A DNA stretch of 61,460 bases, counting the filler. It is 10 parts of 10 records of this genome, joined end to end, with 100 filler letters (N's around TTAATTAATTAA, not from the genome) between each part and the next. Parts side by side here need not be neighbours in the genome. Positions count along the whole stretch, not along the records: positions 17,249 to 27,140 come from SRR7504441_6957; 9 more parts are not named here. One strand, written 5' to 3'. The notes under the pieces were generated by a model. The model saw nothing but the letters and a program-made list of their open reading frames with translations. It did not search any database and had not been told where the DNA came from. Positions 4,962 to 58,382 of this stretch are shown here, in pieces. Every line of letters starts with the position of its first letter. Within the stretch, counting starts at the first letter, position 1. A program made the position numbers and the translations under genes.

Positions 4962-5061
4962 NNNNNNNNNNNNNNNNNNNNNNNNNNNNNNNNNNNNNNN
5001 NNNNNTTAATTAATTAANNNNNNNNNNNNNNNNNNNNNNNNNNNNNNNNNNNNNNNNNNNN
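4962..5061. other. Artificial contig spacer
   Basis: N-run / TTAATTAATTAA (stops in all six frames) / N-run. Confidence 0.98.
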
Positions 5062-9954: not shown

Positions 9955-10054
9955 NNNNNNNNNNNNNNNNNNNNNNNNNNNNNNNNNNNNNNNNNNNNTT
10001 AATTAATTAANNNNNNNNNNNNNNNNNNNNNNNNNNNNNNNNNNNNNNNNNNNN
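9955..10054. other. Artificial contig spacer
   Basis: N-run / TTAATTAATTAA / N-run. Confidence 0.98.
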
Positions 10055-12289: not shown

Positions 12290-15200
12290 ATGACGCGCTG
12301 GTGGCCGGCCGAGGCGGCCCCCGAGGAGGATGGCGGCCCGGAGCCGGCGGAGCAGCTGGAGCCGTCGCCGCTCAGCGAGCCGGTAGTCCGGATGGGCCAG
12401 GCCGCCGTCGAGATCCCGGACTGGGACGGGCGGGCCGTGGTGACTCTCTGGCGCGACGGCGACAGCAGCCAGCCGCTCACGGTGCGGCTGGCCGCCCGGG
12501 ACGGCTCGGCGGTGGCCGGGGTTCACTACCGGCTGCCGGCGGCCGGGCTGGAGGCTCAGTTCGGGCCCGGGGCCAGCTCGGCGGTGCTGGAGCTGCCGCT
12601 GGAGCGGGACGCGGCAACGGTGGCGGACGTGAGCTGGACGGTCGAGCTGAGCACCCCGGGCGAGGAGGCTGGGTACACGGTGTCGGCTCTGGCCCGGTGC
12701 GTGTGCACGATCCGTCACACTGAGTTCGAGGGCCCGACCGTCGAGTGGAGCGAGCAGCAGGTGGAGGTGCTCGAGAACGAGGGGTACGCCTGCCTCCAGA
12801 TGCGCCGGAACGGGGAGCTGAGCCAGCCGCTGAGCGTGCCGTTGCGGACGGTGGAGGGGGTCGGGTTGCACGCCGGCCGGGCGGATTACGACTTCGTGCC
12901 GGGCGAGTACATTGCTGAGTTTACGCCCGGCGAGGCCACGACTGTGGTGGAGGTGTGCGGGCTGGCCAACGGAATCTAACGGTAACGGACAGGTGTCCAT
13001 ACTGGACGACGAAGAGATTGGGAAGGAGCATAAGCCGGACCGGCACTTTGAGGTTTGGATCGAGCCGGCGGAGGAGTACCGCGTGGTGCGGAGCGCGAGT
13101 GTGGCGGTGACGGTGCAGGACGCGGACTTCAGGGGGCGGGGGTGGGTGCACGAGGTGGTGGACGCCACTGCGTTCAAGGTCATAATGCTCGTGTTTACGT
13201 TCTACGCTCTGGTGGGCACTGACATTGTGAGTATTGGCCTAGGCTGCGAGCGACTCACTGCGTGGGGCAGTGGATTCTAACGGTCGATTATGATCAAGGG
13301 GTGGACGACTTTGAGACCGCGCTGGTCATCATCACCATAGCGGCGTTCTGTTTCGAGATTGTGGCCATGTGCATAGTGTATCGGGCCGATTACTGCCCGT
13401 CCACCAGCTTCGTGATGGACTTCGTCGCGATGGCAGCCATGGTGCTAATGCTCCCTTGGATCAGGCAATACGTCGTCTTTGACGCCTCGCTCGCCCGGGT
13501 GAACCGGGTGGGCAAGGTGGCCGCCCGAGCCAGCCGGGCGGTCAAGTGCGGGGCTATTATTGGAAAGTGCTTCAAGTTGGCAACTGGACTTTGGTCTTGG
13601 TGGATGGAGCCTGGCGAGATGCCCCAGATCAAAGCGATCCGCCTGGCCGAGCTGAGCGAGCCGGACAGAATCGCCGAGACCGACTTGATGTCCGAGGCCG
13701 AGCGGGGCGCCGTTTTCGTGTTCGGCGGCCCTGAGGTGAGGGCGACGCTGCTCGGATCGATGCAGCCCAAGGAGTGGCTCGCTGTCCTGGGGCCCCAGTC
13801 CCCGTGTCCTCACCCGCTGACCGGCCAGGAGAAGGCCGAGATTTATCTCTATGCGAGGCCGGCTGGGCGGGCTGCCCTGATTGCACTCGCCGCGCCGTCG
13901 ATCAGACGGGAGGCGTTTGAACATTTGTCAGCCGACGACAAGATCGCTGTGCTGGTCAGAATGAACTCAGCACAGCGGGCGGCCACTGCCATCGGAAGCC
14001 CTTCCGCTAATGGGGACAGAAGCGAGGCGAATGGGCGTCGGGCAGAGGACTGGAAGGCCCTCTATGCAATGGCCTCACTCACAGACAAAGCTCGGCTTCT
14101 CACGTTATTCTCAGACGCGGATCGGGTGGATGCTGTGCGTGAAATGACCAGCGAGCAGCGCCGCAAAATCGTCAAAATGATGCATACGACTTATGAAGAG
14201 GCAGAAGAGCATCTGGACGAGAGCAAAAAAGCCGATGCAATCTGTGTGGCCGCCACGGTTTTCGTGGCGATGGACCGTCATGAGAGAAAGAAAGCTATTC
14301 CATTGTTGGGCCCGGAAGAGAAGCATGAGCTAGAAGAAGCCATGAAGCAGATTCGGCGAGCGCATCAAGGCGAGGCGTCTCATACCGACGGTTCGCCCAT
14401 GGCCATGTCCCCGAGTGGCCGGGTGTGGTTCGGAGAGCGGGTTATGATGGAGCAGGAGACGGTCAGCGCCGAAGACCTAGCACAATTGACGCGAGGCTTG
14501 GGTGGCGTCCAAGACAATGCAGAACAAATCGAACTGGGTGCAGTCGAGGACATGGCAAACGAAAGCTGCGGGGAAATCGCGGCTGGCGTGGAGGCCCGAG
14601 TTCAAGCGGACGATGAACTGAATCCGCATTTGACACAAGTCAGAGCAGTGTATCAATCACTGGAGCCGGGTCCGCTTTGCCCTGCAAGCGCCCAAGATGC
14701 CCAGCAAGCCGCAGGGCCGGTATCTGTGCAAGAAAGCGAGGTGCGCGGCCAATTCGCGGATGGGCTCTCGAGTGGGCCTGAAGTGGAAAGCTCCGGAGTA
14801 GAGGGCTCGGGAGTGGATTCAAGCCCAGCGATTGGACCTGGCGTCGGCTCAGGCAGTGGCATGGAGGCTAAAGATTCACTGGATGGGCCCGCAGACGGCA
14901 ACGGAGTCGTGATCGAAGTAGCTGAAGGCGGGCAATCGGGCGCAAAGGGCCAGTCAGACGAGCTGGTCAGCCTTGTCCCGACTCCAGAGGCCAAAGAGGC
15001 TGCTGATGCAAAGATCAAGGCTGACAAGCGACTCCGTGGCCATTTGGCTCAGCAGCAAGAAGCGAAAGACAAAGCCGACCTGCAGATGATAGACGATGTC
15101 GGCCACATAGGAGCGGTGTTGCTGCAACAGCTGGCCACAAAGGTGATTGTTTTGATGATTCTGACAATGCTAATCTTCGCTTTACTCTCAGTCGATCCAT

Positions 15201-17148
15201 TGCCGACTCAACAGACGTACGGACTGGATGCGCTCCTGTCCGCCGAACAGACCTACTCTGCCAGTTCAAATGCGTTCACGTTGAACATGCAGATGTATAA
15301 GTACGGCTATCTACCAGACTACAGCGGGTCTCCAGGCTCTAAATACAACAAGAAGCAGGCGCTGCTATACCTGAAGATAAACGGAGTTTTATATAACAGT
15401 GGCCTCGACACAGATCAGCTGGACAATCGGCGCGATTTTGATGAGCTGGTTGGGTTTGTCCCGAGCGATGGCGGTTGTAGTTTCAGTCCGGCCTCTCTGA
15501 AGGAGGATTTGATGAGTTCGAGCTGTGCGACTGCAGCAATATGGGATTATAAAGACTTGGCGGTTCAAGCTGCATGGTTCAACATCATTGCGGTTGTGCT
15601 GATCGTGGTTTTGATTCTGCTAGGACTAGCTGCCATGGCAAGCGATTTCCACGATTTGATGGCACGACCAGCCGGGGCAATGTTTGCAGTGACTGTTCTC
15701 GTCCAGGCCATTATTAAGCGCGTCGAAGGTCTGATCGCAGACTTGAAGGGGAACGACAAGGTGGATGATCAGGGCAACATCATCGTGGCGGAACCTATCG
15801 ACGTGGCAGATCTGGCCAACGTGATTGGGATGGAATACCAAGAGATCCACCGGACTTTGATCCAGCTGGTACACGACAGCGAGGTGTCGTTCAGCATGCG
15901 CTTGCCGGCGCAACGGAACGCGATCACGCGCATGCATTCCAAAGTTGTGCTGCTTCAGGCTAGACTGCAAATTTGGTCTGAAAACGAGGATGCTTGCAGG
16001 AAAGAGCTGGTTCTTGTGCTCGAGAGCTTCGGCATCCTGCCGCCTCACTTCCATAAACTAATGGAGCAGCTTGGTGCGTTGAGTACAGCCTTTGAACCGC
16101 GTGACGCTGAGCCAACGACACCGCGTGCTCAGCGCATGGTCGAGGAGCTTGTGATTGACTTCACCACTAAAGCTTTGGGCGACACGGCGCAGCTCATCAA
16201 ACAGAAACCAAATCTGTCTGATCTCATCAAGAAGACAACCGACATTCCTGGCTTGGTCAATTTGCTGCGGCATGTGCACCAAGAGGCAGTAGCTCAGGCT
16301 CTGGACGAGCTAGGCGACGAGATCTCGATACCTCCCGATTTCTTCCCATCCGATCCCAATCCAAGTGTCCTGATGGAAAAGACAGACCTCCTGCTTTCGA
16401 ATTGCGGCTCTCCTCGCTCAATAGCGGCCCTCCAAAAGCTGAAAGAGAGTCGGTTGGAGCAGGTAATGGACAATCTCGACAGGGCGACGAGCGCGCATGG
16501 TGTCAGCGGTGCAGCAGACAGCCTGACCTCCGAGGATGCGGTGGCAGTGCTCGCTAATATGTTGAAAGCAGACACACTCCTACCACCCGGGTTTCTGTCT
16601 GTTTATGACAAGCGCATGATGGAAGCACTTCTCGAATTTGTAAAAAATGGCGCCGACGACGGGGACAGGTCAGAAGAGGGAGCCAGGCCGTATTCCGCAG
16701 CGAAAGTGACTTCGTGGATCCGGCTGGCGAACTCGATGGTCCTAAAGAACTCAACATTCGAGCCTGGATTGTTCGGGCGCGCAGACAAGTGGCTGGTGCT
16801 CTTCACAATCGCGCTTGCGGCTCCGATTCCGAACCAATTTGCCACCAGAAGACAGCATCTAAATCACCAGGTCAAAGTGTTTGCAGACGACCCCGAGTTC
16901 TTCCCCAATGGGAGGCCGGAGCAGCTCCTGCAGGCTCTGCAACGGATCGAGCAAATGCGAGCCGAGGGGAGTCCGTTCGCAATAGTGATCCAAGCCGCAA
17001 GAGAGGTGTTGAAGAGCCTGCCAGTCGATTCGACCGGAGTTGTTTGCACAGTCACTCTTTCAATGGAGAATGATTCGATACCTGCGGGGTCGGCTGAGAG
17101 ATCGAGCTTCGAGCTGCAGTTCCGCAGTGACATTGCTTTTATTTTAGG
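12290..17148 (+). CDS. Large membrane protein: two Calx-beta domains, S1-S4 voltage-sensor-like helices, helical repeats, S5/S6-like TM pair; 3' truncated
   Basis: Calx-beta motifs (DGSAVAGVHY, FTPGEATTVVE|VSILDD); S4-like LARVNRVGKVAARASRAVK; two short introns join ORFs 12131, 12912 and 13262. Confidence 0.75.
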
Positions 17149-17248
17149 NNNNNNNNNNNNNNNNNNNNNNNNNNNNNNNNNNNNNNNNNNNNTTAATTAA
17201 TTAANNNNNNNNNNNNNNNNNNNNNNNNNNNNNNNNNNNNNNNNNNNN
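17149..17248. other. Artificial contig spacer
   Basis: N-run / TTAATTAATTAA / N-run. Confidence 0.98.
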
Positions 17249-20710: not shown

Positions 20711-23700
20711 ATGAACTCGGAGCCGTCGATCTCGAGCTGGATCGACCCGCCCAACCCTTGCCACCGATGGAACCCGGCCACCTCGGTCAGCTTCCCGTTC
20801 CCCGAGGGGACCGGCCGGGGGTACAGACTCTTCCGCTGGGTCTTCCGCCGGTACCACAACCTGCTGGCCCCGGAGCTCAACAAGCTGCTCGCACATGAGG
20901 GCCCGCCCCCCTCGTTCGACCACCTGCTCGGCTGCCTCGAAGTGCCGGTGGCTAGCTCCGGTGAGGCCGTGATGCTGCTCTGCGCGCAAAGCTGCGGGGA
21001 CACCTTCGCGTTCGAGGAAGTCGACGGCGGCCGGATCCGGGTGATGCTGCGCGAGTGGTCCCCCGCCGACGCCCAGGAGGCGCTCGAGGCCGACGAGGCC
21101 ATGCGCGACAAGACACGCCGGGAGCGGGCGCTGTGGGCCTTCTTGTGCTCCGGCGGGGCGCTGCCGGTGCGGGCCTGGGTTGTCTCGGGGCTGATGCTCA
21201 CCCGGGCGGCGATGGACCTGTTCCCTGTGGTGATGTCGGAGGTCCGCCGCTTCCACGCCGAGTGCGCCCAAGAGGCCGGTCAGCTCAGGCACCACGCGTG
21301 GACCAGAAAGGCCGGCCGCCGGCCAAACTTTCGCTGGATAAACAGTAACCCGGCCATGTCCTGGGCGCTCGAGCCCAGCGATCGGCCGGAGGTTCTCCGG
21401 CTGCCGCTAGAGCTGGTGGACCGGCCGGCCGCTGAGGCAGTCCAGGGAGTGCTGGTCGGCGGGTGTGCGCAGGACCCTGGGATGATAGAGCTAGGGTTTG
21501 CACCGCCGATAGGGTCAATCGGGGAGCTGCGGCGGACCGTGCTGGAGGAGCTGCTGTACGAGGGGGTCCCGGCCACCGAGAACGACACGTTTGGGCTGTT
21601 TGTGGATTGGACTTCTACGTACGAGGGCGACCCATCCCAGTATGAGTCGGATTGTCAAGTGCTATGTACGGTGCTCCAGGCGGTCGGCTCGACCCAACAG
21701 CTGCGCGAGCGGGCGGCCGAGGTGCGGGCCGGCCTGTCGGCTGGTGAGTCGAGGCAGGTGCGCGGGCTTTGTGAGTCGTGGGCGCTTAAGCAGCACCTCG
21801 ACATAGCAGCGAGCTGCCAGCTGATCCAACAGCTGCTTGCGTGCGCTAACCGGCTCGACCCGGCAACCGCCGAAGCGTACGATAAGCTGAGCGGGGGGGC
21901 GCTCGAGTCCGTGCTCGCGCTCGAGCGCTCACATTTGATATACAACTGCCTGGCTGTGCTTTCTGGCCCGAGAGACCCCCGGCAGCCACAGGCACCGGGC
22001 AGGCGGGCGGGGCTGAGCGGGGGGCAGGCCAAGCGGGCCTTCTTCGAGCAGCTGAGCAAGCTCCGGATGAGTGGGACCGCCCCTGGCTCTGACGATCAGA
22101 TGCTCCAGCAGCTGAGGCTCAGACTGCAGGTGCGGTGTGCGGTGCTCCAACTGACTGGGGGCAGGCAACTGACACGGACTGGATCAGAGCAGCCCACACC
22201 GGCTGGGCCAACAGCTCTGTCCAGCTCCAGTCGACCATCAGCACCTGGCTGCACGAGCAATCAGCAGTCCAGCGCACGCTTTGGTTATACGGAGAGACCG
22301 GCGCGGGCAAGTCTGGGCTGCTCGCACAAATCGTGGACCAGTACCAGGGTCCGGAGCTGCTCGCCGCCCACTGGAGCATGCAGGGCGCCACCAGCGCCTC
22401 GCTCCACTCGGCCCTCTGCTCGCTGGTGCCTCGCGGGATGTTCTGAGTTGAGCCGGCGGGCCAGGCGCATCAGCTGGCGGCCCAGTCGCCGCGGCTGCTC
22501 CGGGCGATGCTGCAGCAGCTGGCGAGCGAGGGGACCGCACCACTCAACCAACGGACAGTGGCTGAGCTGTGCTCTCTGCTGTTTGTGGAGCCGTTTCTTG
22601 CACTCGAACCGACTCCTCAGCCGGTGCCAGACAATGATTGATCGATCGATTGACCCGGCGCAGGTGCTGCTGGTGCTGGATGGCGTGGACAACTGGCGGA
22701 CGCACGAGCTCGAGCAGCTCTGGCAGATCCTGCCCAGCCTGCAGGGCCGGGCCCGGGCGCTCCCAGGAGTTGTGCGTGTGGTGCTCTCATGTGAGTCCGA
22801 CCCGTCGATGCTCGGACTGCAAGAGAGCCCCGCGGTGCTCCCAGTGCAGGTCGAGCCCTCGGCCGGCTCGATGGAGGCGGTGCTCCACGCAGCGCTGGTC
22901 GAGAGGGCGGCCACCGAGGAGCAAGCCGAGTCGGCGCAGATGCTCGTGGTGCAGGCTCAGGCTCTGAGGGCGGCGATGAGCCCGGGCGGCTGGCAGCAAG
23001 TGCACTGGGTCAGCGCGATGCTCCAGTACGATGCGATGGTTGCCCGGGTGTACGGGAGCAAGCCCCTCCCAATCAGCCAGTGCAGCTGGGCACAGGGCGC
23101 CCAGCTTCAGGCGCTCCACCGGACACACTTTGAGCAGATGGCGCGCACCATGCTCGCGCACCAGCCCGAGACGGGGCTCACGCTGGTCCACTTGCTCTTC
23201 TCGCTGCTCCAGCTGGTCTGCGCGCTGGGGGGCGAGCCAATCAGCTTTGACATGCTGGCTCGGGTGCTCAATCCGGCTGACTCGCCGCACGTTGTCTCAC
23301 TGCTCCAGACGCTCGCCCAGCACCTGGCGCCACTCATGCACGGCCGGTATCTGGTGCTCGGCCGGTCGGTCCGCTGGTGGCTTACCCGCACAAACACAAA
23401 CGAGATGGCGCAAGCGCTCGGGGTGCCGCCCCTGAGCGTTGAGCCTCACCAGCTGATCATTACGGCGCTCCGGCAACGACCGGACAGCTGTGCGCTGGCC
23501 AAGGAGCTGGCGGAGCTGTTCGTGGCCTCAGGCCAGACTGAGAAGGCGCGCGAGCTGCTGAGCGTGGTGTCCAAGCCGTCAGTGGAGCTGGTGACATACT
23601 TGCTTGCGCTTCACCAGTGGGCAGCTGACAGCAACGGGGCACGCGAGGTGAGCTCGCCTGCTGGCCACAGGGCTCACTGGCAGGCAGGTGCTGCAACACG

Positions 23701-26700
23701 TGCTGGCGCACACGGAGATCGAAGTCACTGCCGCCATGTGGGCGGCTGGGTTGGCGTCGTGCGCAATGGAAGGCTGTCCACAAGCGGCCGAGCGCTGCTT
23801 TGGCGAGATGCGTGAGGCAGGCGCTCTGGCAGAGATCACCACGTACAATCTCATGATCGTGGCCTACTGCCGGGCCCAGCAGCCGGATGCAGCCACTGTC
23901 TGGATATCCCACATGAACGACGCTGGAGTGGCTGCCGACTTGGTCAGCCTGCGGACTCTCGTGTGTGCCTATGCCGAACTGCACAGGTCAGACCAGCCAG
24001 CGCTAGGCCTGAATCTAACTCCTGCGAGGGCAGGCCGGAGCAGGCACTCCGATGGCTGGGCCAGATGGAGTGCGCTGGGTTTCTGCCCGATTCAGCCCTG
24101 TGCACACAGGCATGCCTGCACGGTGGGCTCTGTGAGCCAGATGACAGGTGATCGATTCATGCACTGAGGCTGGAGCCGGGTTCCGGTCAGCGGCCGAGCG
24201 GATTCTGCAGCTTATGTGTGACCTTTCGCGGAGTCTGCACGCCGACACGATCAATGGGTGGCCCGGTCGGCTGGTCAAGTGCTGACTGGCGGGCAGGATA
24301 CTTGATTTTGACCTGGAGCACGCCGAGCCGAGCATGGAGGCGATCAGCAGGGTGGCGGAGGGCTGGCTGGACTGGATGAGGGCGCACCGTGTGGCGGCCA
24401 CAGTGGAGACGTACAACTTGATCATTGCTGCCATGTCGGAGACAGCAGACGAGCCCGAGCAGGTTTCGCGCTGGCTGGACGCCATGGGCCAGCAGGGGCT
24501 CTCACCAGACGTGAACTCGATCATCCACGTGGCAGAGTCATACGCACAGGCCAAGCAGCCGCACGAGGCCGCCTGGTGGCTGCAGCAGCTGCCTAGCTTA
24601 GGACTCCAGCCGTCTGCTCAGAGCTTTGAGTGTGGGGTGCGGGCCTATATTGAAGCCGGGATGCCGCAGGAAGCCTTGACCTGGCTGCACAAGCTCTGGG
24701 CTTCTGGGCTCTCGATGAGTGACACCACGCTGCTCGCACTTGTGTGTGAGGCGTTTGTGCAAGCCGGCGAGCTTGACATCCTCACAGTCGAGTGGCTTGA
24801 GTCGGTGCTCCGCCAGTCACGACTCCAGCCAGACACTATGCTATGCGACCGGCTGGTGAGCTCACTACTGCACGCCAAGCACGTGAACAAGGCTGTGCAG
24901 TGGATGGAGTGGTTTGTGCAGATCCGGGTGCTTCCAGAGATCCGGACACTCACGATGCTCATCACTGCTCTCGCCGCTGCACGAATGCCGGTGGAGTGTG
25001 CGATGTGGATCAACCACATGGAGAACTTGGCCGGTGTCAAACCGTGCACTGTGCACTACAATGCAGTGATCGCGGCCTTTTCTCGCTCGGGACAGGCAGA
25101 GATGGCCGCGTGGTGGCTCAACCACATGCAGGCGAAAGGAGCCCAGCGGGATGTGGTCAGCTTCTCCACTGTAATATCAGCATACGCTGCCGCCAAGAAG
25201 TGCGAGGAGGCAGCTGAGTGGCTCGAAGCGATGAAGGTGGCTGGGGTCCAGCCCGACATCATCTCTTACAACACTGTGATCTCGGCGTACGCTGCCTCCA
25301 AGCGCCCGGAGGAGGCTGCTCACTGGCTCACCTGCATGCGCCAGGCGAGAATCGAGCCCGACGTCTTCAGCTACAACACGGTGGTATCAGCGTATGCTGG
25401 CGCCCGCCGGGCCTCGGAAGCGGCCGAGTGGTTGAACAGGATGCGCGTTGCTGGAGTCCAGCCGGACGTGGTCAGCTTCAACACTGTCATCTCAGCCTAC
25501 GCTGGAACCAACGAGCCGCACCAGGCGGTGCTCTGGCTGGAGTCGATGAAGGAAGCGCAGATCGAGCCGGACGTAGTCAGCTATAACACTGTGATCTCTG
25601 CGTTTGCCACTGCCGGCGAGCCGCTGGAGGCAGCAGCCTGGCTGGAGAAGATGTCGCGTGAGGCCTCGCTCAACCCGGATGTGGTGAGCTACTCCACCGT
25701 GATCTCGGCGTATGCGAATGTGGCAATGGCAGCCGAGGCCGCCGAGTGGCTCAAGCGGATGCAGCACGCAGGAGTAGAGCCCAACGTGGTCAGCTTCTCC
25801 AGCGTGATCTCTGCATATGCGGCAGCCAAGCAGCCGAACGAGGCTGGGTGGTGGCTGGAGGCCATGAAGCAGTCCGGGATAGAGCCCAACGTAGTAAGCT
25901 TTTCCGCCGTGATCTCTGCATATGCGAGCGCTCGCCAGCCTGATAAGGCAGCCGAGTGGCTCAACAAGATGCGCGCCTCCGGGATCGAGCCAAACGTGGT
26001 GAGCTTCTCCACTGTCATGGATGCCTATGCGCGTGTGGGCGCGCTCGGGCCGTGCCAGTGGTATCTGGACGAGATGATCGGGCTCGGGCTGAGGCCGAAC
26101 AGGTACACGTACGGCGCTCTGCTGCAGGCGTGCGGCCGGTGCAACGAACCGCAGCTGGCTTGGATGTATTTCGAGCGGCTGCTCTCGGAAGGAGTCGAGC
26201 TGCACAAGTTTCTGTTCGACTGGCTCGAGCGGGTGCCATGCTTGATTGAGCGAGTGCTGACAGTCGGGCAGGTGCTGGGCGAGCAGTCGTTTGAATACTT
26301 TTGCCACACACACGGGCTGTCACTGGACGCGATCCGAGCTGGCAACTACAGGCACGCGCTCAACCAGGGCTCGGCGGCCCAGAACCCACTGCACGACGAT
26401 AAGCAGCCACCTCCGCCCAAGGGCGGGGCCAACCGGAAAGCCAAGGCGCGCGGGCAGGTCGCCCGGTCCAAGCAGAGCAATGGAAAGCACTCGAGGACGC
26501 GGCAGCACCAGCACCATAACAGCAAGGGCGGCGGCGGCAGGGGGCAACGCAATCGGGGCAAGGGTGGAGGTGGCCGGGGGCAGCACGGATCACAGGGCCA
26601 GAATGGATCAGCTGGCAACAGTGGCAGCAGTCGGCAGCCCCAATCTGGCATGGCGGTGGCACCTCCGCCCCCGCCCATCGAAGCTGTGTGGGACTACCAG

Positions 26701-26889
26701 CAGCCACAGCCGGCACAGAAACAACCAGCTCAGCAGCAGCCAGCTATTGCGCCCGTAGGTGGGCTGCCAGCTGCCCCACTTGCAGCACGTAGTGGGCAGC
26801 AAATGTGGCGGGTCCGAGGCACTGGCCAGGAGCCTAGCGACAACAGCCAATCCAAATGGAATATACAACAGTTTATGACTCAGAACTAA
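20711..26889 (+). CDS. ~1,940-aa protein: unknown N-terminal domain + NACHT/STAND-like P-loop NTPase + PPR array + low-complexity tail
   Basis: Nine introns (21992-22027, 22130-22164, 22426-22464, 22624-22663, 23648-23687, 23987-24033, 24110-24147, 24258-24296, ~26232-26270) give a continuous frame; Walker A GETGAGKS, Walker B VLLVLDGVD; 35-aa PPR repeats. Confidence 0.8.
25048..26205 (+). repeat. About 11 canonical P-class pentatricopeptide repeats (105-nt period, one 108 nt)
   Basis: Repeating VVS(F/Y)(N/S)TVISAYA...EAAEWL..M...G(V/I)(Q/E)P(D/N). Confidence 0.95.
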
Positions 26890-27140: not shown

Positions 27141-27240
27141 NNNNNNNNNNNNNNNNNNNNNNNNNNNNNNNNNNNNNNNNNNNNTTAATTAATTAANNNN
27201 NNNNNNNNNNNNNNNNNNNNNNNNNNNNNNNNNNNNNNNN
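27141..27240. other. Artificial contig spacer
   Basis: N-run / TTAATTAATTAA / N-run. Confidence 0.98.
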
Positions 27241-28297
27241 TGAACAAATAGCTGCCCGCTCGGCTGGCCGGGGGCCGCGGGCCGGAGGGACCAGTTTTGC
27301 TCGGACGGGTTTCCGTTGAGCTCAAAGATGTTCAGCAGGTCGTAAAACTGCCCGTGCGTGTCGCCGCACACTGTCATCCGTTTGTCCTCGTCGAAGTTAA
27401 CCCGCGTGAGCGACGGCGCCGCCACCTGCCCGCGCCGCTCGCCGCCGCCCGGCCGTAGCAGCGCACATGCTTGCGCCGCATTGCTATCAGGATCTGGAAT
27501 ACGTATCTGCCACCGCCAGTCAGCCAGTCCAGCGGCAGCCATTAGGTACTTGCGGTGGATAGACTTCTCCTCCTTGAACCACTGCATCATCTCGAGCACT
27601 GCCCCGCAGCTCAGCCGCTCGGCTGTGCCAGCTCGCACCAGACTCGATAGTCGGCGGCGAAGGTATGTGTGGGCCTTTATACGAGTCGTCCACCACTGCC
27701 CCGGGTGAGAGCGAACCCCGCCGGGCGCACCGATCTCCTCGGGGTCGAGAGTATCGCTCAGCAACTGCACGTCGTGGTCCCCGCTGATTGCATCTGCGAA
27801 CGCCTGCTTCTTGAGCTCCTTGCGGCACTCCTTGAGCTTATCCCGCGCCACCTTATCCTTGGGCTCCAGTTCCACCGCCTGCCCCCTGCTCGGCTGTCCC
27901 GCCCGGAATGGCCACCAATTTGAACGCCGCGGCCGCCTCCTTGAGCTTCCCCAGCCCGATGAACGCGCAGCCCTTGCGGTACGACGCCTGCGCCGCCGCT
28001 CGCAGCGTCAGAGCGGCCGCCAGGAGCCTTGGCGTTGGTCGGCTCGAGCCCGAGCGCGCTGGAGGCGTCCTCGATCACCGAACCCCAGTTCTCCATCCTG
28101 AGGTGGGCCATGGCCCGGTTGTTGAACAGCACGGCCAGCGGGAGCACGGCGATCCCCTGCGAGTACAGGTCCACCGCATCCTGGTACTGGCCAGCTGGCC
28201 CACTGATCAGCCCCGGCCGGCCGCAGCGCTCACCTTTGAACACCTCGTTGCCCTGCGCTTTGAACGCAAGCGCAGCTTCCTCTGTCTCTGTCGACAT
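27241..28297 (-). CDS. PPP5C: Serine/threonine protein phosphatase 5 (TPR + PPP domain), 3' truncated
   Basis: KAQGNEVFK, NRAMAHLRMENW (TPR); TVCGDTHGQFYDLLNIFELNG; eight short introns traced. Confidence 0.93.
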
Positions 28298-31286: not shown

Positions 31287-31386
31287 NNNNNNNNNNNNNN
31301 NNNNNNNNNNNNNNNNNNNNNNNNNNNNNNTTAATTAATTAANNNNNNNNNNNNNNNNNNNNNNNNNNNNNNNNNNNNNNNNNNNN
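31287..31386. other. Artificial contig spacer
   Basis: N-run / TTAATTAATTAA / N-run. Confidence 0.98.
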
Positions 31387-37743: not shown

Positions 37744-37842
37744 NNNNNNNNNNNNNNNNNNNNNNNNNNNNNNNNNNNNNNNNNNNNTTAATTAATTAAN
37801 NNNNNNNNNNNNNNNNNNNNNNNNNNNNNNNNNNNNNNNNNN
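37744..37842. other. Artificial contig spacer
   Basis: N-run / TTAATTAATTAA / N-run. Confidence 0.98.
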
Positions 37843-38790
37843 NGCAGCCGGGCTGGCTCTGCGGGCGGCGGCCGGGTGCGGGCTGCTCCGGCCGGCCTGA
37901 CCGGCGGGCAGCGAGGGTCGTCTGGGCGAGGCCCGCTGGAGCGCAGATCGCTGGCCGGAGCCATTGGCGCTGGCACGCTGCGAGGGTGTGCGGCCGGAGG
38001 GGCTTAGAGGCTCAGGGCGGGGCCAGGCGATAGGTACTGGTGCGTGTGGGGCGCAGACAAAAGAGCTGTCAGAGAGCTCTGCGCCGGGCTGACGCTGCCG
38101 GCGGACGGGCGGGTGGGGCGTGGGAGGTCGGATGCGGGTGATCGGCCGGTCAGGTCACGTTCGCCGGCTTGTCGGAGCACTTGCTGCAGCCGGTGCGGGC
38201 CAGTTTCAAAGTGCTGGCCAAGATTAAGTTCACTGTAGCCCCCGGCTCGCCCGGGCAGTCAGGCCGGGCCAGATGCTAGTCTACCGCGCCGGCGGGTTGG
38301 ACGGGGGCGGGACTGAGCTGCTCGAGCCGGGCGATGCCGAGCGCGTGACTGAGCACTGGGAGCACTCTGACGAGCTCAGCTATGTGCAGGCCAGGATCCG
38401 GTGAACCCTTGCCCAGCACAGAGCGGACGGCCGGCAGGGACGGCCCGACCGCCTGTGTGCGCGGCCCGGAAGGGGAAGCGGTGGCCTGGGGGCTCACGCA
38501 CAGCGAGGGCGCGGTGAGGCTGCTGAATGGATCGTGTCGTTACTGGCCGGGTGCAGATCGGTGCGGTGTTTACTATGCCCGAGCACAGGAGGCAAGGGCA
38601 CGCACTTGCAGTGGTCAGGGCGCTGGTGGGCCGGACTCAAGCGCTGGGCCGGACGGCTTATTGCTTTGTGCGGACCGACAATCAAAGCTCGTTGCAGTTG
38701 TTCGCTAGATGCGGATTCGAGCCAGTCGAGCCTGCCGTGTTCTGGCTCATGGGACAAGCGCTGACAGACGATAGCGACTCGGAAGATTGA
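37843..38790 (+). CDS. GNAT (FR47/glycine N-acyltransferase-like) acetyltransferase, 5' truncated
   Basis: IGAVFTMPEHRRQGHA...NQSSLQLFARCGF (GNAT motifs A and B). Confidence 0.8.
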
Positions 38791-42269: not shown

Positions 42270-44462
42270 TTAATTGTATGAATTCTGTTGCCCTTTGCCA
42301 CAGACAGCACAGGTGCCACTCACCGCCATGGGCCTTTGATGCTGCCTGCCTCGCCCAGCCGGCGTGTCTTGCCAGTCTCGCCCATCACGCGGGGCTGGGT
42401 CGGCTTGGCGCTCTGCTTGAACCCAACCATCTTCGAGTCCTCGCGGTAGACCTCTAGCAGCTCCGGCCCGGTCACTTGCTCGGCCCGGTCGATCACCCGC
42501 CCGACCAAATCGGTTATCCCGATGCACTTGTATTGGAACCCGGCAAACAGGTCGTGATGGCTCCGGATGGCCGGCGGGGCCTGCGCGAGCATCTGGACTG
42601 TGGAGAGCGTCTGGTCGGACACGCACATGTTCTGGTCCATGGTCATCTGGTCGGCGACCAGCTGCGAGATCGGCTCGCCGTCCTCATTCTGCCACACGTT
42701 CTGCGGGATCTGTTTGTGCTCCTCGTCCAACCCGTCCACGAACTGCTGCCCGCTCGACACCTCGACCGCCTCGTCCTGGATGGTGTTGGCCTCCGCGAAG
42801 ATCAGGTCCATCTTGCGCTTGACGCCGTCGAGCATCAAGCACGCCTGCGTCCTCATCTCCCTCGCCTCCACGTGCAGCAGCGCATTCGACTGCCTCACCT
42901 GCCCGGCCTCAGCCCCGCCCCAACGGCCGTGCACCTTGCTCGGGCTGGCCAGCGGCGACAGGCTCTTGGGCGAGAGCACTAGCGCGGACGCATTCGCCTG
43001 CTCGGGCTTGGGCTTGTTTGTCTCGGTCCGCAGCTGTGAGTTGGCTGTCTGGCTGTAGAGCGTAGAGCTCTGTGACACGCGCGGGACCCGCCGCTGCTCC
43101 TTGAGCTGGCCGTAGTAGCTCGGCTGGCCGCTCGGGGTCGCCTTGCCCAGGGTAGTGGCTCCGCTCTCTTCAGGCAGCTGGCTGAGCCTCTGGGCACGTG
43201 AGAGTGGGCTTTGTGTCGGGGCAGGCGACTCCTCCTCGAGCGGCATCGGGGTCTCGTAGAACTTGGCCCGGAGCTCAGCCAGCGCCTTCTCCCGCTCCTT
43301 GAGCCGGACCGACCCGCGCTTGTGTGCCGCCTTCTTGCCCTGTTGCGGTGCTCGCGAGCCCTTGTGCGCACGGTCCTCCTCCTTCCGGAGGCACCTCTTG
43401 ATCTTGTCGGCTACCGAGCACGGCGGCGCCACCCTGCGCCCCGCTCGCCCTGGGCCAGCCGGCCTGGCGGCACCGGGTGGCCGGCTGGAGGTCAATGGCG
43501 AGCACGGTGTCGCTTTCTGGGGCGGCTCGCGCCATCTCCATTGCGGGGACCGCGCCGATCTGACTGAGCTGGGGGGCCGGGTGCTTGGCCAGTTCGGAGT
43601 CGGGCACCCGCTGCACCAGCTGGGCGAAGCTCCGCTCGAGCCACGGGTTGGCCCATTGCGGCAGGCTGCACCCCCAGATGAGCGGCACGTGACACGGCTC
43701 AGCTGCCTGGCATACGAGCCAAAGTCTGAAGCCACCAGCTCGACCAGCGTGCCGGCCGCCTGCTTACAGTCGAACATCTGCCCCTTGCTCAGCCGCTGCC
43801 GGGCTGCCGCCGCTGACCTCGCACGCCACCAGGAAGCTGAGCGTGCCCGCAGGTGTGAGACCCATAGCCTGGCAGAGTCAGCACAGACCGGGGCTGCTGG
43901 TACCGGCAGGTTGCGCTCGGCGATCTCGAGCGAGTTTTGGAGCGCGCCGTGCTGCACTTGGAACTCCTCCTTGAGCACCTTGAACACGGTGCTCGCCGAC
44001 GCGTCGCCCGCGATCTGCCGCTTGCCCTGCCCGGCCGTCAGCCCCGGCCCCGGCCGGCCGGCCGCCTCCTCGTACGCCTGCTCGAGCTGGGCCAGGTTCT
44101 GGCGGGTGCGGACCACCAGTTCTACCGTCTCCCGGTTTTGGAGGAACGAGAAAAACTGGCGGAGCGCCTCGAGCTGGAGCACCGACCGGGTCCACTCGCG
44201 CGGTCCGAAGGCCTCCGGGCTGAGGTAGATGGCCCCAATCCCGCACACACTGGCCCGGCCGCTCAGCCCGGCGGCCAGCGCTGCCAGCGCACACGCGGCG
44301 GTCCTTTGCGACAGCCCCGCGAATGTATCCGGACTCGCGGACGGCCACCGCTCGGTTGACGTTGAGGTACTTTTCGGAGGCCGGGCCGGCCTCGCCGTCG
44401 GTGATCTCGATGATGAGCGCTTGGTCCCCGTCCACCTTCCAGCCCTGCGGGAGCTGCGGCAT
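42270..44462 (-). CDS. Multi-exon hypothetical protein
   Basis: Start MPQLPQGWKVDGDQ; coding-like blocks separated by ~40-nt GT..CAG segments; no family recognised. Confidence 0.65.
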
Positions 44463-44641
44463 CCTGTCTCGCGGCGGTCCCAGTCGCCCACCAGCCCAGG
44501 CAGAGCAGTGCCTCGAACACAACGGCTCTCACCAAACAACCGTTGCTCTTGTTTGCTTGCAAACACCCAGCCCACGCGCACAGCGCCGGCCTCGGTGTTG
44601 GGTTCCCTCGGTGTTGGGCGCGGCCGGCGGAGCGTCGAGCC

Positions 44642-47600
44642 ATGGTGGGGACCACGCCGCATCTGCTCCCGGTGCGCCCGGGGCTGGCTGGCCCGGCTGG
44701 CTCACCCTGGGGCCGCAGGGCATGCCAGTCTGGATGCACAACCAAGGCGACAGCTGGAGCCGCGCCGTTCTCGTCAAACCGGAGGGCGCCGGCAAGCCAG
44801 GCTGCTGGTGCCCCGCGCCCGGACCGCTGCCCCCCTGACCGCCCGGCAGGTTCGCCCGCCTGGCCGACGATCCGCTCAATCGGCGGAACGTGTCGTGCCA
44901 CGTCGACCAGCTGCTCGCCCGATGCGAGGACGAGGACGAGGCCATGTCCGGCAACCTGACGGTGCCCGGCCGGCCGGATCGGCTCACCCGGCCGGCAGTC
45001 GCTGCGCGAGGTCTCGGAGCCGGAGGTTATGAGCGCGCTGGCCCGGCGGTATGCAGTCGGTGCGCCGGTGGGCGGGCCGGCCGCCAGCCGGTGGGCCAGA
45101 TGAGGTGTTCACGTACGCGGGGCCGGTGCTGGTGTCGATGCGGCCGATGGCGGCGCTGAGCAGCTACACCGGCCAGAAGCTCAAGGAGTTCCACTATGCG
45201 CGCGCCTCCGACACACCGCACCTGTGGACTGTCGGAGCGCAGGCGTACCGCTCGATGGTCAAGCAGCAGCTCTCGCAGACCGTGCTGCTGACCGGGGCGG
45301 CCGGATCGGGCAAGAGCTTCTGCCTCCGCCAGCTGGTCCGGCAGCTGCTGGATGGGAGCACTCTGAGGCTCGATGAGCCGGGCAAGAAGCTCAACAGCTC
45401 GCTCATGATCCAGCAGCTCGAGGCTTCGATGGAGATGCTCCGACTGATGGGCTCGGTGGCCATCGCCGACAGCCCCGAGTCCTCCCGGTACGTGACAGTC
45501 GTCGAGGGCCAGTTTGACGCCGAGCCCGCTCTGGTCGGAGTCGGGCTGCAGGCTGTGCTGCTCGACAAGTCGCCGCTCACAGTCGGGCACAACGGGTTCT
45601 CTTTCCAGATGCTCCACCTGCTCTCCGATCGCGGGGCCGCACGGTACAAGTTCCTGCACATCGAGCCCGGGGCCCAGTTCCGGTACTTGGGAGACAGGCA
45701 GCTGCCCAAGGTGGCGCCAGTAGGCCAGAGTCTAGCGGGGACCGCCGACTGGGAGATCGTGCTGCGCTGCCTGGAGCTGCTCGAGGTGAGCCGGAACGAG
45801 ACCTCCTTCTTCCTGCAGCTGCTCGCGGCCGTGCTCCACCTCGGGAACCTGGACTTTGTGAACGAAGGAGTGAATGACCAAGGCTCGGAGATGTCTCGCG
45901 CAATGCCGAGCGACCTCGGCCTGTTCAAGCTCATCTGCCAGCTGCTCTGGATAGAGGAGGAGCTGGTGCTCGAGGCGCTGGTCGGCAAGAGCCCGGACGC
46001 GCCCGACATGAAGCACAAGGGCCGCACGCTCGAGGGCAAGCTCCCGACCGTGGCCCAGGCCCGGCACAACGCGGATTTGATGGCCCAGACCGTGTATCAG
46101 GTGGCGTTCGACTGGGTGGTGGCCACCAACAATCACCTGCTGGCCAACCTGGAGCGCGAGGCGGGCACGGCGTTCCGTCTGAATCTGATGGATGTGCCCG
46201 GGCTGGTGCAAGACGGGACTTATGGCGGGCTTTGCTCCAACCTGATGTTTGAGATGGTCCAACAACGGATATGGCGCAACTTCCTCGGGGGGCCGGCCGC
46301 CAAGCTGCTCGCCGAGGGGATCGACTTTGCAATCCAGCGCCCGGCAGCCGACGGCGTGCTCGAAGTGATTGTGGGCGGGCAGTACCCAGGTGTGCTCTCT
46401 ATCATGTCGGAGATCCACTCGATGACCAAGGAGACGCTCTGCATGCTGCTCAGCAAAATGCGCCAGGTCGAGCCGAGCCAGTCTGTACTCTCAGCAGTGA
46501 GCGAGCAAGGTTTCACTGTCTCCCACACCGGCGGTGACGTGAGCTACGACTCAGAGCTGGTGCTGGCGGTGTGCGGCGGGCTGTTCGGGCTGGACATCGG
46601 GGTGGTGCTCCAGCAGAGCGGGAACCGGATCCTGCGCGGCGGGGCTGGGATGCTCCCGCAGGGTGCCAATGCGTTCGAGGGCTTCAAGGCTCTCGCTGAG
46701 ACGGCGCTCTCCGCGATCAATCCTTACTCGACTCACGTGGTGGTTTGCCTCAACCCGAGCCACCAGCCGATCGGCCGGGCCGACGTGCAAACCGCTCATG
46801 ACTGCGACCACGCGCTGGTGATAGCCCAGGTGCGAGGCTCGGTGCTGCCCGAGCTGCTCCACTGGGAACGGAACGGATTCACCGAGTGGATCCCACACGG
46901 CCAGTTTGTACGCGAGTACCGGTACCTGCTCTCGGAGGACGATCTTACCAGCATGCCGCTCAAGCAGCTCTGCCTCAAGGTGCTCTCGGCCACGCTGCCG
47001 CCGGATGCGTACGCGATCGGCGACCGGCACGTTCTGCTCAAAGGCGACAAGACCCGCGCACTGGCCGCCCACCTGGCCGCCCGGCGCGAGGCCGCCGCGG
47101 TGGCGATCCAGGCGCGCGCGCGCGGAGTGATTGGCCGGATCCGGTTCCGGCGGCTGTGGCGGATCAAGAACACGGCAGCGAACGACCTGAAGCGTGTTTT
47201 GCGAGGGTTCAAGCAGCGGGAGGAGTTTGAGCTGACCCGGATCCGGATGCTCGAGGCCCAGCAGCTGCTCGGACGAGTGGCCCGCGGGCACCTGGCCCGG
47301 CTGTCAATGATCGACCACAAGCCGTCAAAGTACTTTTGTGCGGCGTACAACGCCTGGAACAGCGGGCTGACCATCTGGGAGAAGGCGTACCACGCCGCTG
47401 TCACGTTCAAGAAGCTGTACCGCGGGCACTCTGTCCGCAAGTGGTACTGGGGCTACACCGACAAGAGCGGCCGCGAGATGATCGGATTCCGCGAGTGGAA
47501 GATCAGCGCGTACACCGTCATCCAGAAGCACTACCGCGGCTACCTCGGGCGCCGCCGGGCTGCAGCAATGGCCACTCGGGTGTACGCGGCGTGCGTGATC

Positions 47601-49661: not shown

Positions 49662-50093
49662 TTAGCTTGCACCCGGGCCGCGCGAGGGTGTTGCCGCCAA
49701 TGCCCTTGTATTCGTGGGTGTCTCAGCAATACCCACTTGCTTCAATTGTGTCGCTTTTCTCATTTTGGATACTCCAGCACTCGTGAGCCTCCACGGATTG
49801 TGTACATTCCGCTGGTACAATGCGTCCCTGGAGTTATCGAAGCTTGGACAGACACCCGCATCACTGAGCTCAGCTTCGATTATCGACTGAAGTTCAGTTT
49901 CAGACCATCTTTGTACACCATCGCTATCCCGCTCAACTTGAACAAGGAGGCGACAAAGAAATCCATTCAATGGATCATAAATGATCTCAATGGATGGCAG
50001 AGGTTTCCCAGCCCATCGACTATCGTCAGCCTCTGTCCAGGCAACTTTCCTCTGCGATGACCCGGATTGGCGAATGACAACATCTTGCATGTT
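49662..50093 (-). CDS. 3' part of a hypothetical protein
   Basis: Open frame from the spacer to a stop followed by AT-rich convergent intergenic DNA. Confidence 0.45.
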   Translation of the reverse strand, partial: NMQDVVIRQSGSSQRKVAWTEADDSRWAGKPLPSIEIIYDPLNGFLCRLLVQVERDSDGVQRWSETELQSIIEAELSDAGVCPSFDNSRDALYQRNVHNPWRLTSAGVSKMRKATQLKQVGIAETPTNTRALAATPSRGPGAS

Positions 50094-50193
50094 NNNNNNN
50101 NNNNNNNNNNNNNNNNNNNNNNNNNNNNNNNNNNNNNTTAATTAATTAANNNNNNNNNNNNNNNNNNNNNNNNNNNNNNNNNNNNNNNNNNNN
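50094..50193. other. Artificial contig spacer
   Basis: N-run / TTAATTAATTAA / N-run. Confidence 0.98.
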
Positions 50194-50383
50194 ACCATGA
50201 CGGGTACTCTTAGGTACTCTTGATTGAAATTATTACTTAATGAAAAATCTTGTTGAATAGTTCAATCAACCCAACTGTAGCCGTGTACACTTACTAGCAG
50301 TAGTTGGAATGCACACCCACAAGAAAATTACTAAATTTATTTATAGTTTTTGTGGCTGCATAATCACTACATGATTGTATTCA

Positions 50384-50950
50384 TCAATTTCGCAGTGCAT
50401 TGTCATAATTTCGCAATGCGTCGTCAAGAATTGCTACTGTCGCATCTGACCTAGTCGAATTGTTGCGTGCACTTTTTGTGGAATTGGAATCACTCTTGAT
50501 CCCCAAAGCCTGTTTTGCTTCATCGATTGCCTTCTTTTCCGCCTTTTTCGTCTTTCTTGCCAGATCCTCCAATCCAGCAGCCTTGAGTTTTCTCAGGCGT
50601 TCTGCTAGAACACTAGTCGGCTTTACTCGTACTGTGGCTTTGGCTTTGTCCGAGCTTTGACTTTGTGAAGCTGAATTTGAGGGCTCCTTCTGCTTTGTCC
50701 TCGTCTTAGTTTTAGTTGTGTTGCTACCTGGTGATGGTGATGCAGCAGCTTTCTTTTTGGTGCCATTAGTTGACGTCTGATTCAAGCTGACGTTCCGTGA
50801 GCTTTCTGTGTCTTTGGTCGTCGTTTGATTTGCTCCTTTTGAAGCTTTCTCGCTCTTTTCGATCTCCTTCTCCTTGCTCTTTGCCCTCAGGTGATAGTTT
50901 GCTGGCTTCTTGAGGCTTTGGGGGAGCTTTTTGTTTTAAAGCTGCCGCAG
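50384..50950 (-). CDS. Fragment of a Lys/Ser-rich low-complexity protein
   Basis: ORFs 50766-50993 and 50384-50785 with charged composition; no clear start. Confidence 0.45.
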
Positions 50951-52020
50951 CCGAGAAGCTGGCCGAACTGACAAAGAAAGAGGAGGCTGTCAAACAGGAG
51001 GCTCAGCGAGCAAAGGAGAAAGCCAAGGCTGAGAAGAAGCAAAACGATGGAACAGCGCCGACTCAAGGAGGAAGAAGCCAGAAAGGAGAAAGAGGTGGCA
51101 GATGCTAGGCAGAGGATTGAAGAAGAGAAGATAAAGAAACTCGAAGCAGAAGAACTCAAAAGAAAAAATGAAGAAGCCATGAAGCTCAAGGCAGAGGAGG
51201 AGGCTAGAGTGCAGGCCGAACTTGAGAGGGCAGCTGCTGAAGCTGCAGCAGTACAGTTAGAGAGAAGAATTGCTGCCTCTTCCAAGCGTGCTATCGGCTT
51301 CTATTGCGAGAAGTATCAGGCAGGAGTGTTTTTTCACTGGAGAAAGATTCATGAAATGCACAATTATGTCGTCCGTGTTCTATCCCGAGTCCAAGCCATG
51401 CTACAGAACTCCGATCTGTATTTGTTTTTCTACAAACTAAAGCACCACCGAATATGCACAATTGAACACAGGCTTAGAGGTGTCTCTGCTATGAAGGTGC
51501 TTGACACAAATCGAAGCTCTCGCTTCATTCAAAAGTGGAGAATTGTTCTTAAGTCGTCTGAGGTCTTAATTTCAGCACTTGAAATGGGTCGGTCACTATG
51601 GGAGGAGGCTTGTGCAGACTTTGGAGGACAATATTGAAGAGGTCTAGCCCTAGTGTGTTGAACCGACTGGTGATGCCCATCCGCCAATCATGCAACACCA
51701 TATGTAAAAGCTTGAATACGCAGACACTGCAGTTTTGGAAAGATACCGAGACTGCCTTTGATTCAATCGCATTTCCTCATGATGTGCAAGAAATGCGCCA
51801 ACTGGGCCTCGTATTTGAGGCATTGGCGCGGGGTCACTATGAATCGATTCTACATGGGTGGTACTGTGACAGCCCAAGACAAGGAGATTCCAGCATCGAG
51901 TCACAGCACATTGATCAACCAAAACCAGTCATAGAGACATTGCTGAACTCAAAGCAGTCCTTTCACTGTGATGGTGGTGCGAGGGCAAAGCATTACTTGC
52001 GAGCACTGAAACTGTGCTAA
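50941..52020 (+). CDS. Fragment(s) of an E/K/A-rich coiled-coil protein followed by Sfi1-like W-spaced helices; possibly chimeric or pseudogenised
   Basis: AAAEKLAELTKKEEAVKQEAQ then EQRRLKEEEARKEKE in another frame; frame breaks near 51045 and 51637. Confidence 0.5.
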
Positions 52021-54685: not shown

Positions 54686-54785
54686 NNNNNNNNNNNNNNN
54701 NNNNNNNNNNNNNNNNNNNNNNNNNNNNNTTAATTAATTAANNNNNNNNNNNNNNNNNNNNNNNNNNNNNNNNNNNNNNNNNNNN
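54686..54785. other. Artificial contig spacer
   Basis: N-run / TTAATTAATTAA / N-run. Confidence 0.98.
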
Positions 54786-58282: not shown

Positions 58283-58382
58283 NNNNNNNNNNNNNNNNNN
58301 NNNNNNNNNNNNNNNNNNNNNNNNNNTTAATTAATTAANNNNNNNNNNNNNNNNNNNNNNNNNNNNNNNNNNNNNNNNNNNN
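58283..58382. other. Artificial contig spacer
   Basis: N-run / TTAATTAATTAA / N-run. Confidence 0.98.

Follow-up and report, generated by a model that had tools for sequence, protein, structure and literature searches.

The 61,460-base stretch of DNA analysed here (the window) comes from the nuclear genome of a eukaryote with GC-rich DNA. On its plus strand it carries a gene with an array of pentatricopeptide repeat (PPR) motifs. The array lies in an open reading frame (ORF) of 851 residues (24334-26889, +), within which 25048-26205 encodes eleven in-frame motifs. Ten of these can be read with the published PPR code. This readable code is correct but ordinary for the family; the unusual feature appears to be the array's place behind a NACHT/NPHP3_N-like nucleoside triphosphatase (NTPase) in one large protein. 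The conserved array is probably the C-terminal part of an NTPase protein of ~1,930 residues, and would bind one conserved RNA element with the sequence UGUUUUAAAA.

All eleven motifs are encoded on the plus strand and have 35 residues each, apart from R6 with 36. The pair ND at positions 5 and 35 is found in R1 (25048-25152), R3 (25258-25362), R4 (25363-25467), R5 (25468-25572) and R6 (25573-25680). R2 (25153-25257) has SD. R7 (25681-25785), R8 (25786-25890), R9 (25891-25995) and R10 (25996-26100) have SN, and R11 (26101-26205) has GH, a pair without known code. The initial annotation of this DNA had listed the ten consecutive motifs as ND, SD, ND, ND, ND, ND, SN, SN, SN, SN, and both residues and coordinates were exact. 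The ORF matches the Pfam families PPR_2 (E = 2.6e-94, 309.6 bits; cut-off 30) and PPR (E = 7.9e-75, 242.5 bits; cut-off 25). By motif length, and by profile scores above the curated cut-offs, the array belongs to the P class of PPR proteins. R1 to R6 each score 55-69 bits against a profile built from the ten repeats, and a tryptophan is conserved in helix B of the repeats. Alignments to the designer protein dPPR-U8C2 (PDB 5i9g, E = 1e-90) and to maize PPR10 (PDB 4m59, E = 2e-70) are in register, which identifies positions 5 and 35 of the array as its code positions. Base-specifying pairs (ND, SD, SN) occur in ten of the eleven motifs of 25048-26205, compared with two of the eleven motifs upstream. 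This segment is probably the best-preserved part of a P-class PPR solenoid.

Published pair assignments give the array a predicted target. The available text of Barkan 2012 (PMC3420917) describes PPR tracts as lying parallel to the RNA, with T,N specific for A, T,D specific for G, and N,D favouring U over C (dissociation constants of ~3 vs 17 nM). That of Yan 2019 (PMC6468296) assigns TN and SN to A, TD and SD to G, and ND to U, and reports no binding of RD to any of the four bases. Read from N to C, the ten pairs predict 5'-UGUUUUAAAA-3', with some tolerance of C at the U positions. R1-R6 (25048-25680, +) would read U G U U U U, and R7-R10 (25681-26100, +) would read A A A A. The same target had been proposed in the initial annotation, and it agrees with these publications in pair assignment and with Barkan 2012 in polarity.

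The repeats had also been described as very homogeneous, and their arrangement in blocks had been taken as a sign of recent tandem duplication. Homogeneity is not what the repeats display. Pairwise identity of the ten averages 48% for protein (range 26-69%) and 58% for DNA (range 36-71%). Where repeats share an amino acid, its codon is also shared in only 45% of cases, and Tandem Repeats Finder reports a single array only, with 1.8 copies of a 105-base unit and 76% matches. The block arrangement itself has some substance: four or fewer runs occur in 48 of the 1260 distinct orders of five U, one G and four A (3.8%), so the order is mildly non-random. Its explanation by duplication fares worse, as repeats with the same code are no closer to each other than to the rest. 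In comparisons that leave out positions 5 and 35, the similarity of same-code versus different-code repeats is 0.46 vs 0.50 for protein (permutation test, p = 0.89) and 0.57 vs 0.58 for DNA (p = 0.71). Adjacent and distant repeats barely differ (0.51 vs 0.48). Because the repeats are divergent and same-code repeats are no more alike, we conclude that the ND and SN blocks mirror the predicted target sequence and not a recent duplication. The analogy drawn with the hypervariable repeats of fungal NOD-like receptors (NLRs) is likewise not supported. For those repeats the available text of Dyrka et al. 2014 (PMC4986451) gives a criterion of >85% identity over >=100 residues; the mean here is 48% and the maximum 69%. 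A truly homogeneous array of the type imagined in the initial annotation is found outside the window, in the top-scoring database match (P0001). This protein of 1,254 residues, from a 1.9-Mb contig and with a metallophosphoesterase Pfam entry, has ~19 nearly identical PPR-like units of 32 residues.

Full-length database relatives of the array, in the size classes searched, reach 35-36% identity at best. They are generic PPR proteins, many of them from dinoflagellates and plants. Nine longer relatives were matched, none of which shares the N-terminal part; for P0087, the comparison with exon 4 of the gene model described below gave E = 0.093 at best. Closer relatives are fragments. L001 is a metagenome contig of 1,385 bases which spans the end of R4 to the stop codon and is 76.7% identical to the window in DNA over 772 bases. 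Between the two, 239 of 258 codons are identical at the protein level. The proportion of synonymous differences (pS) is 0.887, which is saturated, and that of nonsynonymous differences (pN) is 0.045. All 19 replacements fall at repeat positions 15-34; helix A is free of them, as are positions 5 and 35. The 5/35 pairs are identical in all seven comparable repeats (R5-R11), including all four SN pairs. P0152 (59 residues, 73% identical) keeps the ND of R4 and the N at position 5 of R5. P0110 (83% identical over 60 residues) keeps the N at position 35 of R10, the G/H of R11 and the segment that follows. Small contigs from the metagenome runs X1-X3 are 99-100% identical to the gene, and all six of their differences are synonymous third-position changes.

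By this codon comparison, the specificity pairs, and with them the RNA-facing helix, are shown to be fixed by purifying selection; the predicted target should therefore be one conserved RNA element. Diversifying selection at the ligand-contacting positions, which the initial annotation had proposed to look for across alleles or metagenomic reads, was not seen against L001: the pairs are invariant and the variants synonymous. Invariant repeats across relatives had been named there as an outcome that would speak against its own account, and invariance is what L001, P0152 and P0110 display. A recently expanded homogeneous array, in which tandem duplication produced the blocks and diversifying selection reprogrammed the specificity, is accordingly very improbable. 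The order of four ND followed by four SN fits it, being of a kind found in just 3.8% of possible orders, as does a mean repeat identity (48%) that is probably above that of usual plant PPR motifs. It is contradicted by the low DNA identity and same-codon use of the repeats, by the lack of any closeness among same-code repeats, by the shortfall from the >85% level of internal conservation, by the invariant pairs and very low pN/pS among relatives, and by the purely synonymous population variants. Purifying selection at the code positions further separates the array from the hypervariable fungal case.

The expectation that the target would be rare in GC-rich DNA was borne out: TGTTTTAAAA has no exact match on either strand of the window. 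Two one-mismatch matches were found compared with 0.46 expected, and at least two were reached in 8 of 100 shuffles. The degenerate form YGYYYYAAAA occurs four times in the window. One of the one-mismatch matches (50932) is located inside an AT-rich island (50001-52000) with a GC content of 0.435, compared with ~0.6 elsewhere in the window; the other (49527) is just upstream of it.

The array is joined to the NTPase through a spliced gene model of eight exons and ~1,930 residues. Of its seven GT-AG introns, six are 35-47 nt long and the other has 149 nt. Exons and introns are all on the plus strand. Exon 1 (20711..22129) is an open frame from an ATG and encodes an N-terminal region of 473 residues. 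Intron 1 (22130..22164, 35 nt) shifts the frame, has CTGAC and ends in GGGCAG; its removal brings exon 1 into one frame with the Walker A motif. Exon 2 (22165..22425) encodes this motif (GETGAGKS) and the NPHP3_N match. Intron 2 (22426..22464, 39 nt) is in frame and contains a TGA, and its removal takes out the sole stop codon between exons 2 and 3. Exon 3 (22465..22623) encodes the part of the NTPase that separates Walker A from Walker B. Intron 3 (22624..22663, 40 nt) follows, and the junction of exons 3 and 4 is matched by a contiguous fragment of a relative, P0096. Exon 4 (22664..23647) encodes Walker B (LLVLDG), a helical region and the first helices resembling tetratricopeptide repeats (TPR) or PPRs. 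Another fragment, P0094, is similar up to the donor of intron 4 (23648..23687, 40 nt) and then diverges.

PPR-like motifs continue in exon 5 (23688..23986), with the pairs A/E and N/D and the first half of an R/D motif. Intron 5 (23987..24033, 47 nt) splits this last motif, which once spliced is exactly 35 residues long and aligns to positions 2-35 of the repeat profile. Exon 6 (24034..24147) supplies its second half and the start of a long irregular motif. Intron 6 (24148..24296) is the long one of 149 nt and has CTGAC and GGGCAG at its 3' end. It is followed by seven degenerate PPR-like motifs (24297..25047) with the pairs T/E, N/D, I/S, E/S, L/D, D/E and T/C, placed by manual register and profile. 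R1 to R10 come next. R11 and the start of a conserved C-terminal segment (26101..26232) are kept in P0110 and L001. Intron 7 (26233..26271, 39 nt) is in frame inside the long ORF, has CTGAC and ends in GGGCAG. L001 lacks the intron; a DNA contig (X2 record 11) reads through it. The last exon (26272..26889) encodes the conserved segment, an RG/Q-rich low-complexity tail and the stop codon, and its region has no match in Pfam or NCBIfam. RG-rich tails of similar character also end L001 and P0110.

The introns resemble each other by eye: six start with GTG and one with GTC, CAG is the 3' terminus of every one, and a YTNAY element lies near this end in six. An intron of the same short type is present in the neighbouring PP5 gene (27189-28297, - strand), where a 39-nt in-frame intron (28195-28233) has the form GTGAG...CTGAT...GGCCAG. 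The genome seems to use very short introns that long ORF scans read through. Three other candidates were rejected. A micro-exon within intron 6 (24211-24257) breaks the frame needed at 24334. An in-frame intron-like segment at 23264-23308 is conserved as protein in P0094. Removal of another at 24746-24787 would shorten a PPR motif to 24 residues. Contigs of X1, an oligo-dT RNA run, are 99-100% identical to the window on 20986-21280 (exon 1) and on the array. Only small contigs of runs X1-X3 lie on the gene, and the parts they leave uncovered are uninformative. The placing of array and NTPase in one gene model is supported by sequence.

The N-terminal region encoded by exon 1 has no match in Pfam, PADLOC, NCBIfam, PDB or Atlas, and its AlphaFold2 model has a mean predicted local distance difference test score (pLDDT) of 36.6. 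Exon 2 matches Pfam NPHP3_N (PF24883) with 29.5 bits (cut-off 24.8; E = 1e-06) and, more weakly, NACHT (E = 0.0087) and NB-ARC (E = 0.014). The exon with GETGAGKS thus scores above the NPHP3_N cut-off, as expected of the Walker A of signal transduction ATPases with numerous domains (STAND). A Walker B (LLVLDG), recognised by eye and with no profile match, lies ~100 residues past the P-loop in the spliced model, and reads LLFIDG in P0096. It shares exon 4 with the first TPR/PPR-like helices. Exon 4 has a weak TPR_19 match (residues 267-303, E = 0.00029). A phmmer search with it against 1.84 billion representatives returned only three fragments, P0094 (56%), P0095 (49%) and P0096 (53%), and none of the 92 matches of a pattern search with exon 4 is a relative. 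The ORF at 23688-24164 matches Pfam PPR_2 (E = 2.6e-09, 37.5 bits; cut-off 30). Between the NTPase and R1 there are eleven PPR-like motifs: two have ND, one has RD and eight have pairs without an assigned base. Among the seven of 24297..25047, only one has a canonical pair. The whole protein model has ~22 PPR or PPR-like motifs. By way of phase-compatible introns, C-terminal repeats would be part of the same polypeptide as the NTPase, as in STAND proteins.

The predicted protein would be ordered as an orphan N-terminus, a NACHT/NPHP3_N-like P-loop NTPase, eleven degenerate motifs, ten readable motifs, a cap and an RG/Q-rich tail. Its solenoid would hold single-stranded RNA and read a run of ten bases in it (5'-U G U U U U A A A A-3'), with the protein running N to C in parallel to the RNA running 5' to 3' and the U positions tolerating C to some degree. 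By analogy with ligand binding in other STAND proteins, RNA binding may be coupled to a conformational or oligomeric switch of the NTPase. The RG-rich tail may add to the affinity for RNA in an unspecific manner.

An AU-rich transcript of endogenous origin is the most likely target. To our knowledge, almost all studied PPR proteins act in organelles. An organellar target is favoured for this reason, and because the predicted target is AU-rich and conserved; the large NTPase and the low-complexity tail speak against it, as does the modelled start, where inspection by eye finds no obvious presequence. Acidic residues occur among the first 30 residues of the model, and the true start is uncertain. 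Organellar RNA would be the leading candidate class while still short of probable; a cytosolic or nuclear transcript is a serious possibility, and foreign RNA a less likely one.

Several observations weigh against an RNA-reading NTPase protein encoded by one gene. The repeats of STAND sensors normally bind proteins. Protein ligands are also what the available text of PMC12931631 discusses for a bacterial STAND protein with PPR-type repeats. The assignment of the NTPase to a family is based on one exon of 87 residues, and no family in Pfam, PADLOC or NCBIfam matches the remainder of the module, nor was a profile match found for the helical and winged-helix domains that follow the core in STAND proteins. 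The AlphaFold2 model of exon 4, from a four-row alignment, is helical with low confidence (pLDDT 51.2). The code behind the predicted target was worked out on land-plant and designer proteins. Because nine of the eleven upstream motifs have pairs that lack an assigned base, the true RNA footprint may be longer than ten bases, gapped or different. In L001 a one-base gap at ~380-400 (window ~25826, inside R8) breaks the frame; this may be a contig error, or L001 may derive from a pseudogene. Intron 6 is the least certain boundary of the gene model, and an acceptor at 24350 is also in phase. In runs X1-X3 no contig crosses a predicted joint, no splice joint is seen, and the NTPase exons and the array are linked by no read or contig.

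The weak call of intron 6 and the lack of a bridging transcript contig would also fit two separate genes, namely an organelle-type PPR protein starting at ~24334 and an unrelated NTPase gene upstream, with apparent introns that arose by chance. The ATG at 24334 does open the ORF of 851 residues. However, it falls within helix B of a PPR motif, and helix A of that motif is encoded ahead of intron 6. The PPR motifs also run on upstream through exons 6 and 5 into exon 4, which holds Walker B, and the gap between the two genes would be just 183 nt. We regard this arrangement as distinctly improbable.

If array and NTPase form one protein, its ligand could still be a protein. The solenoid would then act as in sensors of the TPR type, with 5/35 pairs inherited from a PPR ancestor and no RNA binding today. 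The usual ligands of STAND repeats suggest this, as does the loss of canonical pairs in the upstream half of the array. Nevertheless, canonical pairs are retained in ten of ten consecutive motifs. Pairs and helix A are invariant while positions 15-34 vary, as would be expected of a constrained RNA-facing surface, and the nearest solved structures are RNA-bound designer PPRs and PPR10. The chance that the solenoid serves only to bind protein seems slim.

A role in innate immunity also has to be considered. An NLR-like sensor would recognise foreign RNA (for example that of a marine protist virus) or mislocalised organellar RNA through the solenoid, upon which the NTPase would oligomerise and activate the N-terminus. 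The sequence of an orphan N-terminus, a STAND-type NTPase and helical repeats is that of an NLR. In 61 kb of host DNA the predicted target does not occur, the modelled start has no clear presequence for an organelle by eye, and an RG/Q-rich tail is unusual for an imported protein. A precedent is bacterial Avs5, a STAND protein with PPR-type repeats according to the available text of PMC12931631. Against such a role, the pairs are frozen despite saturated synonymous divergence, when immune sensors more often diversify; the window has no paralogue, the relatives found are fragments only, and the N-terminal region has no match to a known death or effector domain. On balance an immune sensor is unlikely. 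A eukaryotic STAND receptor whose solenoid senses UGUUUUAAAA RNA (for example viral or escaped organellar RNA), and which switches the NTPase together with an entirely new N-terminal effector, is quite unlikely. An endogenous RNA element bound by an NTPase protein with a conserved PPR array is the reading that we favour.

The neighbours of the gene in the window are ordinary nuclear genes of a eukaryote, among them CCDC93, GH116, myosin, PP5, Rit1 and phosphoacetylglucosamine mutase. No paralogue of the PPR gene is present within the window. Parts of the stretch occur in sequencing runs whose label is marine metagenome. At nine sites, 12 bases are flanked by 44 N on each side, and these are taken as masked (4962-5061, 9955-10054, 17149-17248, 27141-27240, 31287-31386, 37744-37843, 50094-50193, 54686-54785 and 58283-58382); one of them interrupts the PP5 gene. 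Three further long open frames were noted. The frame at 13262-17197 (+; 1,312 residues) has only a weak Pfam match to MgtE_N (5.7e-08), that at 42323-44662 (-; 780 residues) has no Pfam match, and that at 58573-61458 (+; 962 residues) has only a weak Pfam match to DUF7310 (2.8e-04).

Ligands of STAND and NLR-type proteins almost always have to be found by experiment. PPRs are the one helical-repeat family with a validated residue-to-base code, and for this reason a concrete ten-base ligand can be predicted here. If both the fusion and the binding are true, the NTPase-plus-repeat design is used to read RNA sequence in a eukaryote.

Maize PPR10 (4m59) and the designer proteins dPPR-U8C2 and dPPR-U10 (5i9g, 5i9f) consist, like the array, of tandem helix-turn-helix motifs of 35 residues, and the array shares its specificity positions and its pairs (ND, SN and SD) with them. 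The array differs from them in being a natural array of a marine protist, in the conserved tryptophan of helix B, in having ~1,300 residues with an NTPase and degenerate motifs ahead of it, and in that its RNA binding is predicted. Restorer-of-fertility-like PPR genes of flowering plants have been likened to resistance genes because a conflict with mitochondrial genes drives their code positions to diversify. In contrast, the code positions of the array are invariant among relatives, and an NTPase is present.

None of the 199 PPR relatives among the matches listed has a NACHT, NB-ARC or NPHP3_N Pfam entry, which is a weak negative given that the window's own NTPase is barely detectable. A literature search found no eukaryotic NACHT-PPR protein, and only a remark on bacterial Avs5 in the available text of PMC12931631. 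The protein described there, PaAvs5-3 (AVAST type 5), has a STAND NTPase and C-terminal predicted PPR-type repeats, and so resembles the present model. This likeness is by description only; PaAvs5-3 is prokaryotic, has a Sir2-like effector and an nSTAND3 domain, and its repeats are discussed as protein-binding (PMC12931631). The window exon gave only insignificant matches to Avs2 models.

Fungal NLRs and nephrocystin-3 have an NPHP3_N or NACHT NTPase followed by TPR, ankyrin (ANK) or WD repeats, with a variable N-terminus. The predicted protein is similar to them in having an NPHP3_N-type P-loop NTPase N-terminal to a long helical solenoid. Its repeats differ in being PPRs with RNA-code residues and not TPR, ANK or WD repeats, and in an internal conservation of 48% compared with the >85% given for fungal NLRs in the available text of PMC4986451. 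At the ligand-facing positions, selection on the array is purifying and not diversifying as in the hypervariable fungal NLRs.

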